From positions 1 through 7,410 of the IMG/VR virus record IMGVR_UViG_2600254985_000002: a DNA stretch of 7,410 nucleotides. One strand, 5' to 3'. The stretch is from a virus. Taxonomy: Duplodnaviria > Heunggongvirae > Uroviricota > Caudoviricetes. This document shows, in pieces, positions 4,876 to 6,902 of this stretch. Numbering within the stretch: position 1 is the stretch's first letter; every line of letters starts with the position of its first letter. A program made the translations under genes and the position numbers. The notes below the pieces were generated by a model. The model searched no databases. It saw only the letters and a program-made list of their open reading frames with translations, and was not told the origin of the DNA.

Positions 4876-4904
4876 TTGACAGCTTAGAGCTTTTTTGATA
4901 TAAT
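4876..4904 (+). promoter_or_regulatory. sigma-A type promoter: TTGACA (4876..4881), 17 bp, TGaTATAAT (4896..4904)
   Basis: Perfect consensus hexamers with TG extension, then a TATAG element and AAAGGAGG RBS before ATG 4937. Confidence 0.65.
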
Positions 4905-4936: not shown

Positions 4937-5251
4937 ATGATTTTAATACAATGCGTAACCTGTGGGTCTTCAAGTTTCACTAATGGTAAATGTGATTATT
5001 GCGGTAACAAGTACGAAGTAAATGAAGACAAAATATTTTACGGCAATTCGAAAGAAGATGATTCATCATTAGATGAGGATATAACCTTTCAAGAAACTCC
5101 TGCTGGTAAATTAATACTAAAAATCATGATCTATACTTTAATATCTATTGTTTGGTTTGCGATAACTGTATTCATTCCACCGCTATTTATAATAACAATT
5201 ATTTTATTAGTAGTCTATGGGACTTATCGCTTGATAAATAAAAAGAAATAG
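4937..5251 (+). CDS. zinc-ribbon membrane protein (N-terminal CxxC…CxxC, two predicted TM helices)
   Basis: Translation has C-V-T-C … C-D-Y-C near the N-terminus, an acidic linker, two hydrophobic stretches (LILKIMIYTLISIVWFAITVF; PPLFIITIILLVVYGTY), then basic RLINKKK. Own consensus promoter and strong RBS. Confidence 0.7.
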   Translation: MILIQCVTCGSSSFTNGKCDYCGNKYEVNEDKIFYGNSKEDDSSLDEDITFQETPAGKLILKIMIYTLISIVWFAITVFIPPLFIITIILLVVYGTYRLINKKK

Positions 5252-5259
5252 CTTATAAT
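5231..5259 (+). promoter_or_regulatory. sigma-A type promoter: TTGATA (5231..5236), 17 bp, TATAAT (5254..5259)
   Basis: The -35 lies in the last codons of the upstream gene and the -10 just after its stop. Followed by TATAGAATAAA and AGAAAGG RBS before ATG 5289. Confidence 0.55.
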
Positions 5260-5288
5260 AAGGTATAGAATAAACTAGAAAGGTAACA

Positions 5289-5537
5289 ATGAAACAAAAA
5301 TACTTTAATGACAAAAGATATTGCCACTGCTTCGATATACCAATGAGTAATGGTTTAGGAGTTTGCAAAGATTGTAGAGGATACGTGAACATCTGTTATA
5401 GTTGCGATCGCTGTCTACACTGCTGGTTTACATCACAGGTTGAACTATTTACCGAATATGATGAACCTAAGTTGCTGGAACTTATAGAAAACTGGAATAA
5501 ATTTTACCAAACTAGAAAGACAATAAATAATGCTTAG
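5289..5537 (+). CDS. Cys-rich putative zinc-binding small protein (82 aa)
   Basis: Cys/His pattern C-H-C … CKDC … CYSC-x2-C-x-H-C within about 35 residues. Stop overlaps the methyltransferase start (ATGCTTAG). Confidence 0.6.
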   Translation: MKQKYFNDKRYCHCFDIPMSNGLGVCKDCRGYVNICYSCDRCLHCWFTSQVELFTEYDEPKLLELIENWNKFYQTRKTINNA

Positions 5538-6417
5538 TTTAGACGAGAAGAAAATCAGAAAAGGTAAACCTATTGGATTACCATACCAAGGAAGCAAGAA
5601 AAAGATAAGCAAGAAAATAGTTGAGATTATCAAACAGAACTTTGGCACAGACAAGCCGATATACGACATCTTCGGAGGAGGCGGAGCAATTACATCCGAA
5701 TGTATTTTAAATGGCTTAGAAGTATATTATAACGACTTAGACAAGGATATAACCAACGCTTTTGAACGAGTTATCTCTCAAGACCGTGAGTGGATTAAAA
5801 GCCTTATTGTTTCACGTACAGAGTTTACCGAGATTAAGGAGAAAGAAAACAAGACAACAGATGACTTTTTGAAGTTGCTGATTAACTCTTTCGGTAATAA
5901 AAAGAGAGATTATTTATATTCTAAAGAAATTTCAGATTTAAAATATAATCTAGCTAAAGAAATAATTGAAAAGCATGACGTTTTTAGTGGTTATAAACAG
6001 ACCAAAACATATAAGAGATCGATTGAAAAGTACAAACAACTTCAACAACTTCAACGACTTCAACAACTTGAACGACTTGAACAACTTCAACGAATTCAAC
6101 AACTTCAAAAATTAAATAAAATAAAAGCTACAAGCAAAAGTTATCATGCTTTTAGTGATGTTTCTGGAGCTATTCTATATCTTGACCCCCCTTATGAAGG
6201 AAGTCACCAAAAAGGTTATATTAATCAATTCGATAGTCAAGAGTTTTATGACTGGGCATTTGTAATGGCTAAAAATAACATCGTGATAATTTCAAGTTAT
6301 TCAATTTCAGATGAACGCTTTGAAGCTGTATATTCTTTTGACAAAGCGCGCAGCACTCTCCAAAGTGGAAGAAGCAAAAAAGAAAATGAGAAATTATTTA
6401 TGGTTAAAAACAGTTAA
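5530..6417 (+). CDS. N6-adenine DNA methyltransferase, D12/Dam-like (alpha-class motif order)
   Basis: N-terminal G-S-K-K-K-I region, FGGGGA AdoMet-binding motif (5671..5688), NDLDKDI block, and catalytic DPPY (6184..6195) in the order motif I … DPPY. Well-established family hallmarks. Confidence 0.85.
   Translation: MLSLDEKKIRKGKPIGLPYQGSKKKISKKIVEIIKQNFGTDKPIYDIFGGGGAITSECILNGLEVYYNDLDKDITNAFERVISQDREWIKSLIVSRTEFTEIKEKENKTTDDFLKLLINSFGNKKRDYLYSKEISDLKYNLAKEIIEKHDVFSGYKQTKTYKRSIEKYKQLQQLQRLQQLERLEQLQRIQQLQKLNKIKATSKSYHAFSDVSGAILYLDPPYEGSHQKGYINQFDSQEFYDWAFVMAKNNIVIISSYSISDERFEAVYSFDKARSTLQSGRSKKENEKLFMVKNS
6034..6114 (+). repeat. imperfect 9-bp tandem repeat (consensus CAACAACTT, about 9 units) inside the methyltransferase ORF
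   Basis: Units in order: aaacaactt, caacaactt, caacgactt, caacaactt, gaacgactt, gaacaactt, caacgaatt, caacaactt, caaaaatta. In frame, encoding KQL-QQL-QRL-QQL-ERL-EQL-QRI-QQL-QKL. Confidence 0.85.
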
Positions 6418-6420
6418 TAT

Positions 6421-6449
6421 TTGATAAAGTAAAAGCAATTTGATAGAAT
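6421..6449 (+). promoter_or_regulatory. sigma-A type promoter: TTGATA (6421..6426), 17 bp, TGaTAGAAT (6441..6449)
   Basis: Near-consensus hexamers with TG extension, followed by AGAGGAG RBS and ATG 6475. Confidence 0.55.
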
Positions 6450-6474: not shown

Positions 6475-6594
6475 ATGAAAGATACAGTAAAAACTTTAAT
6501 GATGGTTGCAGGTGTCGGCCTTACACTTATCGCTATCACTTGGATAGGTATGCTTGCGACGTTGCTTATTGCATGGATTGGGGGTAACATCTAA
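6475..6594 (+). CDS. small hydrophobic peptide (39 aa, single predicted TM helix), not in the supplied ORF track
   Basis: ATG 6475 with AGGAG RBS 7 nt upstream and its own promoter. Translation MKDTVKTLMMVAGVGLTLIAITWIGMLATLLIAWIGGNI. Stop TAA (6592..6594) overlaps the next ATG (TAATG). Confidence 0.5.
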   Translation: MKDTVKTLMMVAGVGLTLIAITWIGMLATLLIAWIGGNI

Positions 6595-6902
6595 TGAATT
6601 ATGGTACAAATAAGCACTATGCCAATGAATACGGTATGGAACTTAACGAATACTTTAAACATCATTTTAACTATGAAGAGCTTGCAGGCTGGTATACAAT
6701 GCAGGTATTAAAGTATCTAGTGAGAGCTGGCAAGAAAGAGGGTGAAAGCTACGACAAAGACCGTAACAAGGCTTTAGACTATGCAGGAGAACTTGCTAAC
6801 TTAAGTAACGAGAATAAGCTTACAGAATACACTGCTGACGACATTATGAGCTTTGCACAAGATATAGCTGATGATTTCAAACAATGGAAAGGCGAAGAAT
6901 AA
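6594..6902 (+). CDS. hypothetical phage protein, possibly DUF3310-like
   Basis: 102 aa, translationally coupled to the small peptide gene. Pattern NKHY … VLKYLVRAGKK … DKDRNKALDYAGEL resembles what I recall of DUF3310 phage proteins; family name is from memory. Confidence 0.55.
   Translation: MNYGTNKHYANEYGMELNEYFKHHFNYEELAGWYTMQVLKYLVRAGKKEGESYDKDRNKALDYAGELANLSNENKLTEYTADDIMSFAQDIADDFKQWKGEE

Follow-up and report, generated by a model that had tools for sequence, protein, structure and literature searches.

The window, a 7,410-nt stretch of phage DNA, is the early (replication) region of a virulent Lactococcus Skunavirus (936 group), a dairy phage: all 374 records that match it are Lactococcus or Skunavirus, and Lactococcus phage BM1 is 99.7% identical to it over 1.7 kb. 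Here an 82-aa Cys-rich ORF, a homologue of sk1 ORF30 (hereafter ORF30), is followed by the ORF of an adenine methyltransferase (Table 1). The ATG of the methyltransferase (5530-5532) lies upstream of the TAG of the small ORF (5535-5537), giving an 8-nt overlap, ATGCTTAG. Both ORFs are real genes, beyond chance; ORFs on the minus strand beneath them had no family match, and an Rfam scan of the window found none either. Upstream of its ORF30, sk1 has an ORF for a 36-aa membrane peptide that the window lacks. The original prediction had seen this overlap correctly, and had proposed a module in which the Cys-rich protein serves the methyltransferase as controller, specificity factor or co-factor.

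The pair does lie behind a promoter of its own, as had been predicted. This promoter aligns with the annotated -35 and -10 elements of the sk1 early promoter E4 (CTTGACAATTAAAAGAAAATAGCTTATAAT), and phage p2, which lacks the methyltransferase, has an identical promoter sequence. Our promoter scan found no promoter specific to the methyltransferase and no terminator between it and ORF30; lacking its own promoter, the methyltransferase is thus expected to be transcribed early, from E4 and promoters further upstream, jointly with ORF30. The promoter located 3' of ORF30 is conserved in p2 and sk1. The methyltransferase would be translated from its own ATG or GTG via an AGAAAG Shine-Dalgarno-like element within ORF30, part of an 11-mer (AAACTAGAAAG) identical to the copy preceding the Cys-rich ORF, and such initiation could proceed without translation of ORF30.

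Table 1 Features of the ORF30-methyltransferase locus (coordinates in the window; MT+, methyltransferase-bearing)
Feature	Position	Strand	Basis and remarks
Early promoter TTGATA-17-TATAAT, orthologue of sk1 E4	5231..5259	+	Promoter scan, 11/12; drives Cys-rich ORF and methyltransferase
Shine-Dalgarno AGAAAGG of Cys-rich ORF	5277..5283	+	From sequence; 5 nt ahead of ATG at 5289
Cys-rich early protein, 82 aa; homologue of sk1 ORF30 / p2 FDI51_28	5289..5537	+	ORF list, PHROG 1825
SD-like AGAAAG in ORF30 codons R-K; probable methyltransferase ribosome binding site	5514..5519	+	10 nt 5' of ATG
Left cassette junction and 8-nt overlap; new ORF30 tail I-N-N-A-stop	5523..5537	+	38/38 MT+ loci
Orphan alpha-class (D12) N6-adenine DNA methyltransferase, 295 aa; predicted target CCAG or CYAG	5530..6417	+	PF02086, PADLOC
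Motif X-like LPYQGSKKK	5578-5604	+	Precedes motif I; invariant, 31 homologues
AdoMet-binding motif I DIFGGGGA, aa 46-53 (FGGGG aa 48-52)	5665..5688	+	Invariant, 31-homologue alignment
Motif II NDLD, aa 68-71	5731-5742	+	Follows motif I; invariant, 31 homologues
9-bp tandem repeat, 8.2 copies, (Q/E/R)(Q/R/E)L triplets	6035..6108	+	Tandem Repeats Finder; between N-terminal half and motif IV
Catalytic motif IV DPPY, aa 219-222	6184..6195	+	Invariant, 31-homologue alignment
Right junction AAC AGT TAA (N-S-stop); original last codons of ORF30, reused by methyltransferase	6409..6417	+	Comparison with p2
Next early promoter TTGATA-17-TAGAAT with upstream TG	6421..6449	+	Promoter scan, 10/12 with TG; directly after ORF30 in methyltransferase-free phages

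The methyltransferase is a member of a known orphan family

The product of the downstream gene matches Pfam PF02086 (E=3.4e-14; 53.6 bits against a cut-off of 22; residues 19-234) and PADLOC MTase_II PDLC03289 (4.8e-167), and it has the motif order of the alpha group, with FxGxG N-terminal to DPPY and a variable region between them. It is a member of the already-known M.Phi15I / M.Phi145II / M.Phi93II family, with 81% identity to M.Phi15I across 294 of 295 residues and, for the first 163 aa, 90% identity to M.Phi145II; where it starts and ends is consistent with the primers that Murphy et al. 2014 (PMC4190342) used for cloning. The family members share with it the start MLxLDEKK, the end LFMVKNS, the alpha-class motif order and a QxL repeat region, and they occupy the same slot in the same genus, after ORF30 sequence and before ORF27/SaV homologues. 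M.Phi15I has the very flanks found in the window, with the ORF30 3' end upstream and a 39-aa membrane peptide and SaV homologue downstream. By identity and by position, the window enzyme is thus an orphan methyltransferase of the Skunavirus replication module. The gene was reported in 41 of 90 phages of the 936 group (Murphy et al. 2016, PMC4759559). No solved structure matched the methyltransferase by sequence at E<0.01, and an AlphaFold2 model built from a 31-sequence alignment reached a pLDDT of 40.

The enzyme had been described as Dam-class, which holds for its D12 class (PF02086) but probably not for recognition of GATC. T4 Dam, E. coli Dam and DpnM also belong to PF02086 and share the order of an X-like motif, motif I (FGGGG), motif II (NDLD), a variable region and motif IV (DPPY); the orthologues of the window enzyme, by contrast, were assigned CC(6mA)G (M.Phi15I) and CY(6mA)G (M.Phi145II) from SMRT data (Murphy et al. 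2014, PMC4190342). The CCAG assignment in Phi15 was made by elimination, for which the authors' own word is 'tempting', and GATC methylation in Phi93 comes from a separate enzyme, M.Phi93DAM (PMC4190342). The gene mtPhi145-2 was cloned by Murphy et al. and assayed against HphI only, which is irrelevant to CYAG.

That the methyltransferase is an orphan, as originally predicted, is supported. Pfam and PHROG profile searches found no nuclease or restriction-enzyme domain in any ORF of the window, and the window thus lacks the cognate endonuclease that adjoins the methyltransferase in a Type II restriction-modification system. No restriction endonuclease is annotated across a 13.7-kb stretch of BM1 or, HNH homing endonucleases excepted, in the whole Phi15 genome, and when bacterial genomes were searched for methyltransferase homologues with a linked restriction enzyme, the only finds were orphans carried by prophages and contigs that are contaminants. 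Published work treats the orthologues as protection against host restriction (PMC4190342, PMC4759559), the role that had also been anticipated for this gene. The methyltransferase would accordingly methylate adenine in CCAG/CYAG-type sites on replicating phage DNA, a motif that comes from the literature on orthologues rather than from the window allele, and would thereby shield the progeny from those host restriction systems that may read such sites. A 2025 paper on the lactococcal defensome makes no mention of a phage methyltransferase or a CCAG/CYAG motif.

A feature that sets the enzyme apart from classical Dam enzymes is a variable-number triplet repeat. The repeat segment spans 58-97 aa in the 96 homologues measured, nearly always in 3-aa steps, and its length accounts for the variation in methyltransferase length (r=0.99; 96 homologues). 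Phage DM7, 99% identical, differs from the window by an indel of one repeat unit. The longest run of triplets is 10 in the window, against about 7 in Phi15 and more than 20 in Phi145 (counted by eye), and the 10-20 residues ahead of the repeat also differ, with KRSIEKYKQ in the window allele and KKVISGAEWNWFNKKK in Phi15 and Phi145. Phi15, with few repeats, was assigned CCAG, and Phi145 and Phi93, with many, were assigned CYAG; this is the sole hint of a link between the repeat and specificity.

ORF30 is a conserved backbone gene

The Cys-rich protein belongs to the family of sk1 ORF30, p2 FDI51_28 and PHROG 1825 (profile match 1.2e-54, 80 of 81 positions), with 82-88% identity to its members and the same position downstream of E4. 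Its C12, H13, C14, C26, C29, C36, C39, C42, H44 and C45 make up eight Cys and two His, in agreement with the 'about 10 Cys/His' of the original prediction, in the pattern CxC-x11-CxxC-x6-CxxCxxCxxC, with a helical part C-terminal to it. Across 81 orthologues neither H44 nor any of the eight Cys varies, the Cys forming four invariant pairs (12/14, 26/29, 36/39 and 42/45), and a dN/dS of 0.106 overall points to strong purifying selection. On this pattern, the protein is probably zinc-binding and most likely folds around two zinc ions, and its C-terminal helices may serve as an interaction surface. The spacing of the Cys is compatible with two Zn(Cys)4 sites. Like the DnaJ cysteine-rich domain (CxxCxGxG) and zinc ribbons, ORF30 has four Cys pairs, one of them CxxCxG-like (C26-K-D-C29-R-G31), but the likeness is one of pattern only, as ORF30 matches no zinc-finger family profile.

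The search for relatives in zinc-ribbon and anti-defence families that the original prediction had called for returned no match. At E<=10, Pfam had nothing for the window protein and nothing relevant for 19 family members; Pfam and PDB profile searches found no zinc-ribbon or zinc-finger family, and profile searches including PHROG found no similarity to a described anti-restriction or anti-defence family. PADLOC had no match. A word search of 5.8 billion proteins found no remote homologue, and an exhaustive profile search of 1.84 billion representative proteins recovered the ORF30 family itself and two fragments. The best PDB profile match, HdrC, was rejected, as its E of 1.7 is at chance level and it shares only a CxxCxxC string. 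An AlphaFold2 model from a 19-sequence alignment had a pLDDT of 54, falling below 50 over residues 12-45, the whole Cys region. Literature searches on the function of sk1 ORF30 returned nothing specific.

Database entries for this family need care. PHROG 1825 and RefSeq (sk1p31 and others) name the 80-82-aa protein 'DNA methyltransferase', a label that appears to be wrong or unsupported and copied from the neighbouring gene; beyond it, PHROG assigns the family no functional category. We also considered metagenome 'fusions' of 118-119 aa (P0003, P0004, P0007, P0010 and P0016) as a Rosetta-stone link between ORF30 and the 36-aa transmembrane peptide and rejected them: in the P0004 contig, a TAG stop separates the two ORFs, and translating the called gene gives something other than the listed protein. 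In this contig, the one checked, the fusion looks like a gene-calling artefact in which TAG was apparently taken as Gln.

ORF30 and the methyltransferase are distributed independently

We compared a set of 80 IMG/VR loci together with the window, p2 and sk1, in which 38 loci carried the methyltransferase (MT+) and 41 did not (MT-). ORF30 stands without the methyltransferase in 41/79 loci and in about 145 database phages: a 201-nt junction probe was fully covered in 222 records and on its ORF30 side only in those ~145. Separate searches gave 366 phage records for the Cys-rich protein and 224, all from Lactococcus/Skunavirus phages, for the methyltransferase. ORF30 is under similar constraint in both settings, with a dN/dS of 0.116 in MT+ and 0.098 in MT- genomes. 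A dedicated partner would occur with the methyltransferase and be absent without it, which is not how ORF30 behaves; it is a conserved, lineage-restricted early gene of the Skunavirus backbone.

The converse also occurs. Absence of the Cys-rich ORF from relatives that carry the methyltransferase, which had been named beforehand as fatal to the proposed module, is seen in Phi15 and Phi44: both keep the methyltransferase, but an HNH endonuclease gene has displaced the Cys-rich part. Searching the complete Phi15 genome by tblastn, we recovered only residues 48-80 of ORF30, as a stub behind the HNH gene, with no in-frame ATG, GTG or TTG and with the HNH stop ~100 nt upstream. As this stub has no start codon, initiation of the methyltransferase must be independent there. 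Phi15 DNA from two hosts showed CC(6mA)G and no further motif, and the phage encodes no second methyltransferase (PMC4190342), so the enzyme is evidently expressed in Phi15 despite the loss of the Cys-rich part. Outside the genus, homologues with 43-66% identity occur in phages or prophages of Streptococcus, Leuconostoc, Eremococcus and Bergeriella, in unrelated contexts; in none of these four genera did we find an upstream Cys-rich ORF or a restriction enzyme beside them.

The overlap is the junction of an inserted cassette

Comparison of MT+ and MT- phages shows how the two genes came to overlap. Similarity between the window and methyltransferase-free phages breaks off at about 5523-5531. 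In MT- phages, ORF30 ends in ...KNS-stop and is followed by a TTGACA promoter; in MT+ phages, ORF30 ends in ...NNA or ...NFNA, and it is the methyltransferase that ends in ...FMVKNS-stop, followed by the same promoter. At the sequence level, ORF30 of p2 ends ...AAAGAACAGTTAA and continues with TGTTTGACAAAGTAAAAGCAATTTGATAGAAT, and the methyltransferase of the window ends ...AAAAACAGTTAA and continues with TATTTGATAAAGTAAAAGCAATTTGATAGAAT. The methyltransferase homologues in other genera, by comparison, end in ...KLFMV(K/V), with no NS. The left junction reads ATG or GTG, then CTT, then TAG or TAA in 38/38 MT+ loci, all of which have the 8-nt overlap, and the last four residues of the window ORF30 (INNA) were supplied by the cassette and replace the ancestral KNS of the sk1 ORF30 / p2 FDI51_28 / PHROG 1825 family. 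In two loci (L012 and L058), the 5' end of the methyltransferase gene survives as a stub, the scar of a deletion.

These comparisons point to the methyltransferase as an accessory cassette, present in roughly half of Skunaviruses, that was inserted just ahead of the last two codons of ORF30. Its left edge gave ORF30 a new tail of four or five residues and a new stop, and the methyltransferase took over the N-S-stop of ORF30 along with the promoter downstream. The overlap thus exists because the cassette was inserted into the last codons of ORF30, and not because the genes cooperate. We conclude that ORF30 and the methyltransferase are very probably functionally independent, the cassette having been grafted into the end of ORF30 with the overlap as its junction; the identities of the genes, the architecture of the insertion, the independent distribution and the equal constraint on ORF30 were all obtained here.

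Alternative relationships between the two genes

Functional independence leaves room for some coupling at the level of expression where ORF30 is intact, as the overlap is kept in every MT+ locus examined. In the pure form of this idea the proteins do not interact, but ribosomes that finish ORF30 re-initiate at the overlapping ATG and thereby set methyltransferase output. The strict conservation of the overlap, as ATGCTTAG or GTGCTTAA, is consistent with this, as are the rather long 10-nt spacing of the AGAAAG element and the lack of a methyltransferase promoter. Phi15, however, evidently expresses its methyltransferase behind a stub with no in-frame start and an HNH stop ~100 nt away, and a single ancestral insertion, together with the coding constraints of both ORFs, may be all that lies behind the conserved overlap. 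We regard re-initiation as a possible but somewhat doubtful explanation.

A different proposal is that the Cys-rich protein is an anti-defence or host-takeover factor in its own right, for example an inhibitor of a lactococcal defence, that merely adjoins the methyltransferase. It is a small early protein with invariant Cys under strong purifying selection, it is confined to one phage genus, and its locus lies in the variable early region that is home to Skunavirus genes triggering abortive-infection (Abi) systems. A few phages (bIL170, Phi15 and Phi44) are also viable despite loss of the Cys-rich part, which marks that part as accessory rather than essential. Against this, nothing outside the ORF30 family resembles it, and the text of the paper on escapers of 13 lactococcal defence systems does not name ORF30 among the mutated genes. 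Such a role seems unlikely. A bolder idea, and slightly less likely still, is that the locus holds novelty in one of two forms: either the Cys8 protein has a novel zinc-binding fold that only Skunavirus possesses, and acts as a host-takeover or anti-defence factor independent of the methyltransferase, or the 9-bp repeat (4-20 QxL triplets) is a fast-evolving modifier of specificity or processivity.

The functional module of the original prediction, in which the Cys-rich protein is co-translated with the methyltransferase against restriction as its controller, specificity factor or zinc co-factor, is now highly improbable. It draws on the 8-nt start/stop overlap in 38/38 MT+ loci, the common promoter with no terminator between the genes, and the weakness of the SD-like element of the methyltransferase. 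But the insertion junction accounts for the overlap, and ORF30 is a backbone gene that stays intact, under equal constraint, where the methyltransferase is missing; Phi15 and Phi44 do without the Cys-rich part, yet methylation of Phi15 DNA persists, and homologues in other genera never have such a partner. Nor does the enzyme class call for one, as alpha-class D12 enzymes (T4 Dam, EcoDam, DpnM) carry their own target-recognition region. The closest precedent would be the controller (C) proteins of restriction-modification systems, whose small ORF likewise sits directly ahead of a modification or restriction gene and overlaps it. Known C proteins, however, are helix-turn-helix DNA binders found only with their system, whereas ORF30 is Cys-rich, has no helix-turn-helix domain that Pfam could detect, and occurs also in methyltransferase-free phages.

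That the two ORFs are a single gene, the Cys-rich part being an N-terminal domain of the methyltransferase split by frameshifting or sequencing error, would account for the 'DNA methyltransferase' label (PHROG 1825, RefSeq sk1p31 and others) but can be dismissed with near certainty: in each of the 79 loci, the 41 methyltransferase-free ones among them, the small ORF is closed by a stop of its own, the frame offset is identical in all MT+ loci, methyltransferase homologues in other genera begin at the same Met (MLKLDEKKIRKG), and the small protein has no methyltransferase motif or Pfam match.

Implications for Skunavirus biology

When a cheese fermentation fails because of phages, Skunaviruses are the main culprits, and their orphan methyltransferases are a known means of evading the restriction systems with which starter strains are stocked. 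To this picture our analysis adds no new system, and it removes a 'methylase plus zinc-finger partner' module as a false lead. What it does add is an account of how the cassette came to sit within the last codons of a backbone gene, and a warning that the widespread 'DNA methyltransferase' label of the sk1 ORF30 family is wrong. Two features of the locus may be worth bench work: the orphan protein with its eight invariant Cys, and the hypervariable triplet repeat within the methyltransferase.

Insertion of a methyltransferase gene at the end of ORF30

The original prediction coupled an orphan adenine methyltransferase to a small Cys-rich protein as a candidate anti-restriction module; that protein proves to be the homologue of sk1 ORF30. 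The features that it described were borne out: the first 8 nt of the methyltransferase gene, from its ATG on, are also the last 8 nt of the Cys-rich ORF (ATGCTTAG), the Cys-rich protein contains eight Cys and two His, a near-consensus promoter serves the pair, and domain and profile searches found no nuclease domain, and thus no restriction partner, in any window ORF. Minus-strand ORFs beneath the gene pair matched no family, and Rfam gave no match anywhere in the window. The region shares 99.7% identity with Lactococcus phage BM1, and all of the 374 phage records that it matches are Lactococcus or Skunavirus; around the pair lie early genes of the Skunavirus type (an AAA_25 'DNA polymerase subunit', Sak, the lactococcal phage SSB and a SaV homologue).

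Features of the gene pair and of the ORF30 replacement in related phages (window numbering unless a locus is named)
Feature	Position	Strand	Remarks
Cys-rich ORF (ORF30 homologue), 82 aa	5289-5537	+	ORF listing
Methyltransferase ORF, 295 aa	5530-6417	+	ORF listing
Promoter TTGATA-17-TATAAT	5231-5259		Near-consensus; aligns with annotated sk1 early promoter E4
AGAAAG	5514-5519		10 nt 5' of methyltransferase start; within 11-mer AAACTAGAAAG
9-bp tandem repeat, 8.2 copies	6035-6108		Within methyltransferase gene; encodes (Q/E/R)(Q/R/E)L triplets
HNH homing-endonuclease replacement of ORF30 codons 1-47	L008 (bIL170) 1950-2595; L094 (Phi15) 23811-24450

Comparison of loci with (MT+) and without (MT-) the methyltransferase gene points to the origin of the overlap. 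ORF30 of MT- phages ends in R-K-T-K/R-N-S-stop (AACAGTTAA), with a conserved promoter, TTGACAAAGTAAAAGCAATTTGATAGAAT, directly 3' of it. In the window and all 38 MT+ loci, ORF30 ends in R-K-T-(I/R)-N-(F)-N-A-stop, and it is the methyltransferase that ends in L-F-M-V-K-N-S-stop, followed by the promoter found downstream of ORF30 in MT- phages (window 6409-6449). Methyltransferase homologues from other genera end in KLFMV(K/V), without N-S. Since the gene ends are swapped and N-S is missing in other genera, a cassette carrying the methyltransferase gene was inserted just 5' of the last two codons of ORF30. Its left edge gave ORF30 a short new tail and stop, and the methyltransferase acquired ORF30's former tail, stop and downstream promoter. 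The overlap is the left junction of the cassette, and its strict conservation is compatible with a single ancestral insertion. The methyltransferase starts with GTG instead of ATG in four loci, and in L012 and L058 a 5' methyltransferase stub alone remains, recording later deletions there.

The promoter in front of the pair is also present in the MT- phage p2; it is therefore ORF30's own, borrowed by the cassette. The early genes of sk1 all lie within one early-expressed cluster, as seen by ribosome profiling and RNA-seq (PMC10986495).

Independence of the methyltransferase from the Cys-rich protein

In phage Phi15, the first 47 codons of ORF30 have given way to an HNH endonuclease gene, and a whole-genome tblastn search recovered ORF30 residues 48-80 alone, in a stub without an in-frame ATG, GTG or TTG. 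Phi44 and bIL170 are truncated in the same way, the replacement leaving a 33-aa C-terminal stub (bIL170 e21; PHROG 36450). The Cys-rich part is thus dispensable for viability. Phi15 DNA is nevertheless methylated at CC(6mA)G, its sole motif, and M.Phi15I is its sole methyltransferase (PMC4190342), so methylation proceeds in vivo without the Cys-rich protein or translational coupling to it. AGAAAG is the putative ribosome binding site of the methyltransferase, and the 11-mer around it stands also before ORF30's own start. Translation of the methyltransferase might still be coupled to that of ORF30 by re-initiation in phages with an intact ORF30; we consider this rather unlikely, and Phi15 shows that such coupling is not required.

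Outside Lactococcus, homologues with 43-66% identity occur in phages of S. thermophilus, S. agalactiae and Leuconostoc and in prophage regions of Eremococcus, Streptococcus and Bergeriella. They lie between terminase and portal genes, beside HNH or terminase genes, or downstream of a gene for a DUF2628 membrane protein, and none of the sites examined in these genera had a Cys-rich upstream ORF or an adjoining restriction enzyme. With the overlap explained as an insertion junction, and the methyltransferase carried without the Cys-rich part in Phi15 and Phi44, the reading of the two genes as a coupled module is not supported. ORF30 is instead an unrelated conserved early gene whose end received the cassette.

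Conservation of the Cys-rich protein

The two genes are also distributed independently. By tblastn against the phage collection, the Cys-rich ORF is found in 366 records (352 near full length), and the methyltransferase in 224 Lactococcus or Skunavirus records. A 201-nt probe across the junction was fully covered in 222 records, and about 145 more, which have ORF30 without the methyltransferase, matched the ORF30 side alone, their similarity ending at window 5523-5531. Among 80 IMG/VR loci plus the window, p2 and sk1, 38 were MT+, 41 MT- and four too short to tell. The eight Cys and H44 are invariant across 81 orthologues (Cys and His at C12, H13, C14, C26, C29, C36, C39, C42, H44 and C45). 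The dN/dS of ORF30 is 0.106 overall, 0.116 in MT+ and 0.098 in MT- genomes, so purifying selection is equally strong with or without the methyltransferase. The Cys-rich ORF belongs to the phage backbone and is no partner of the methyltransferase; the protein is accessory, because its Cys-rich part is missing from a few viable phages.

The protein belongs to PHROG 1825 (1e-54; equivalents sk1 ORF30 and p2 FDI51_28). Pfam, PDB and PADLOC gave no match, and when 1.84 billion representative proteins were searched exhaustively with a profile, the matches were members of the family and two fragments, and nothing else; these searches gave no zinc-ribbon or anti-defence family. In the AlphaFold model, the Cys region cannot be relied on, and two C-terminal helices are predicted with modest confidence. 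The pattern of four invariant Cys pairs, one of them in a CxxCxG context, is compatible with two Zn(Cys)4 sites. Our preferred guess is that the protein is a small adaptor, stabilised by zinc, whose binding partner early in infection is a macromolecule of the host or of the phage; an anti-defence role seems improbable.

PHROG 1825 and many RefSeq phage records (e.g. NC_001835 sk1p31) name this 80-82-aa family 'DNA methyltransferase'. The sequence does not bear this name out, as neither a motif nor a domain of methyltransferases is present; the label probably spread from the adjoining gene. A 36-aa membrane peptide, translated according to ribosome profiling (PMC10986495), is encoded between E4 and ORF30 in sk1 (L007 2861-2971), bIL170 and many other Skunaviruses, and is absent from the window (5251-5289). 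Metagenome proteins in which this peptide seems fused to ORF30 apparently arose as artefacts of gene calling, with TAG read as Gln. The 68-aa database protein P0026, from a 624-nt metagenome contig, is a chimeric ORF joining the N-terminal 35 residues of SaV/DUF3310 to the ORF30 C-terminal helix at WYTMQV, a string common to both proteins; it arose either by true recombination at a microhomology or as a chimera during assembly.

Other observations on the window

At 6594-6902, the homologue of SaV (DUF3310; sensitivity to AbiV) has 102 aa, as against 128 in sk1 and p2, and lacks about 26 C-terminal residues. Upstream, a 104-aa homologue of sk1 ORF31 (4937-5251; PHROG 1919) is another small early protein that contains Cys, with an N-terminal CxxC-x10-CxxC zinc-ribbon-like motif, a hydrophobic C-terminal part and its own consensus promoter (4876-4904; 12/12; equivalent to sk1 E3). 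Plus-strand ORFs 2398-2685 and 2495-2908, annotated in BM1 as BM1_41 and BM1_40, overlap by ~190 nt in different frames; the latter is a confident DUF7413 protein, and the former, with no family, may be a mis-call.

A methyltransferase protein identical to that of the window (KV39_03425; P0029) is recorded on a 7410-nt contig labelled Escherichia coli, to which the window itself is identical. Skunavirus DNA of 98-100% identity occurs in assemblies labelled Porphyromonas macacae, Paenibacillus kribbensis, Staphylococcus caeli (a 31.5-kb contig, close in length to a complete phage genome), S. pseudoxylosus and Oceanibaculum pacificum (loci L097, L098, L104 and L105). Given phage sequence under bacterial labels, the window is a phage contaminant of a bacterial assembly, and contamination by lactococcal phage DNA seems to recur among bacterial assemblies.

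Identity and target of the methyltransferase

The methyltransferase matches Pfam PF02086, D12-class N6-adenine (53.6 bits; cut-off 22), and PADLOC type II methyltransferase model PDLC03289 (4.8e-167), with DIFGGGGA, NDLD and DPPY in alpha-group order. It is 81% identical over its full length to M.Phi15I and 90% identical over the first 163 residues to M.Phi145II. Along with M.Phi93II, these are orphan group-alpha type II N6-adenine enzymes from the replication modules of 936-type phages Phi15, Phi93 and Phi145 (Murphy et al. 2014, PMC4190342); the cloning primers specify an MLKLDE start and an FMVKNS end, with which the window gene agrees. By SMRT sequencing, Phi15 DNA from two different hosts carried the single motif CC(6mA)G, and Phi93 and Phi145 DNA carried CY(6mA)G, which the authors assigned to M.Phi15I-type enzymes; cloned mtPhi145-2 was tried against HphI only, an uninformative assay (PMC4190342). 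The label 'Dam-class' therefore stands for the D12 adenine class but not for the GATC target that it implied: the predicted target is that of the M.Phi15I family. The window has 10 GATC sites per strand (~21 expected from base composition) and 25 and 31 CYAG sites (~32 expected, near expectation); in this one 7.4-kb sample the counts fit avoidance of GATC and no avoidance of CYAG, the sites that the enzyme presumably protects.

Of 90 phages in the 936 group, 41 were found to have the gene, which was classed as non-core (Murphy et al. 2016, PMC4759559). The orphan methyltransferase is thus already published and not new, and a shield against host restriction, as originally proposed, is the published view of it (PMC4190342, PMC4759559). 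Some Skunaviruses carry two tandem copies 3' of the ORF30 homologue (IMG/VR loci L013, L027, L029, L030, L044 and L047), ~80% identical to one another and ~30 nt apart, which may differ in specificity.

A variable triplet repeat within the methyltransferase

Lengths were measured in 96 close homologues: the N-terminal part has a constant 151 residues, and the C-terminal part changes little (76-80 residues). The FSGYK-to-DPPY segment ranges from 58 to 97 residues, nearly always in 3-residue steps, and explains almost all of the length variation (r=0.99). The longest triplet run is 4-20 among close homologues, and the window and phage DM7, which are 99% identical, are exactly one repeat unit apart. 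The 9-bp repeat thus behaves as a variable-number repeat; it is found too in Streptococcus and Leuconostoc homologues. Phi15, assigned CCAG, has few repeats, and Phi145, assigned CYAG, has many. What remains of interest in this locus is the orphan Cys8 protein and the variable repeat inside the methyltransferase.
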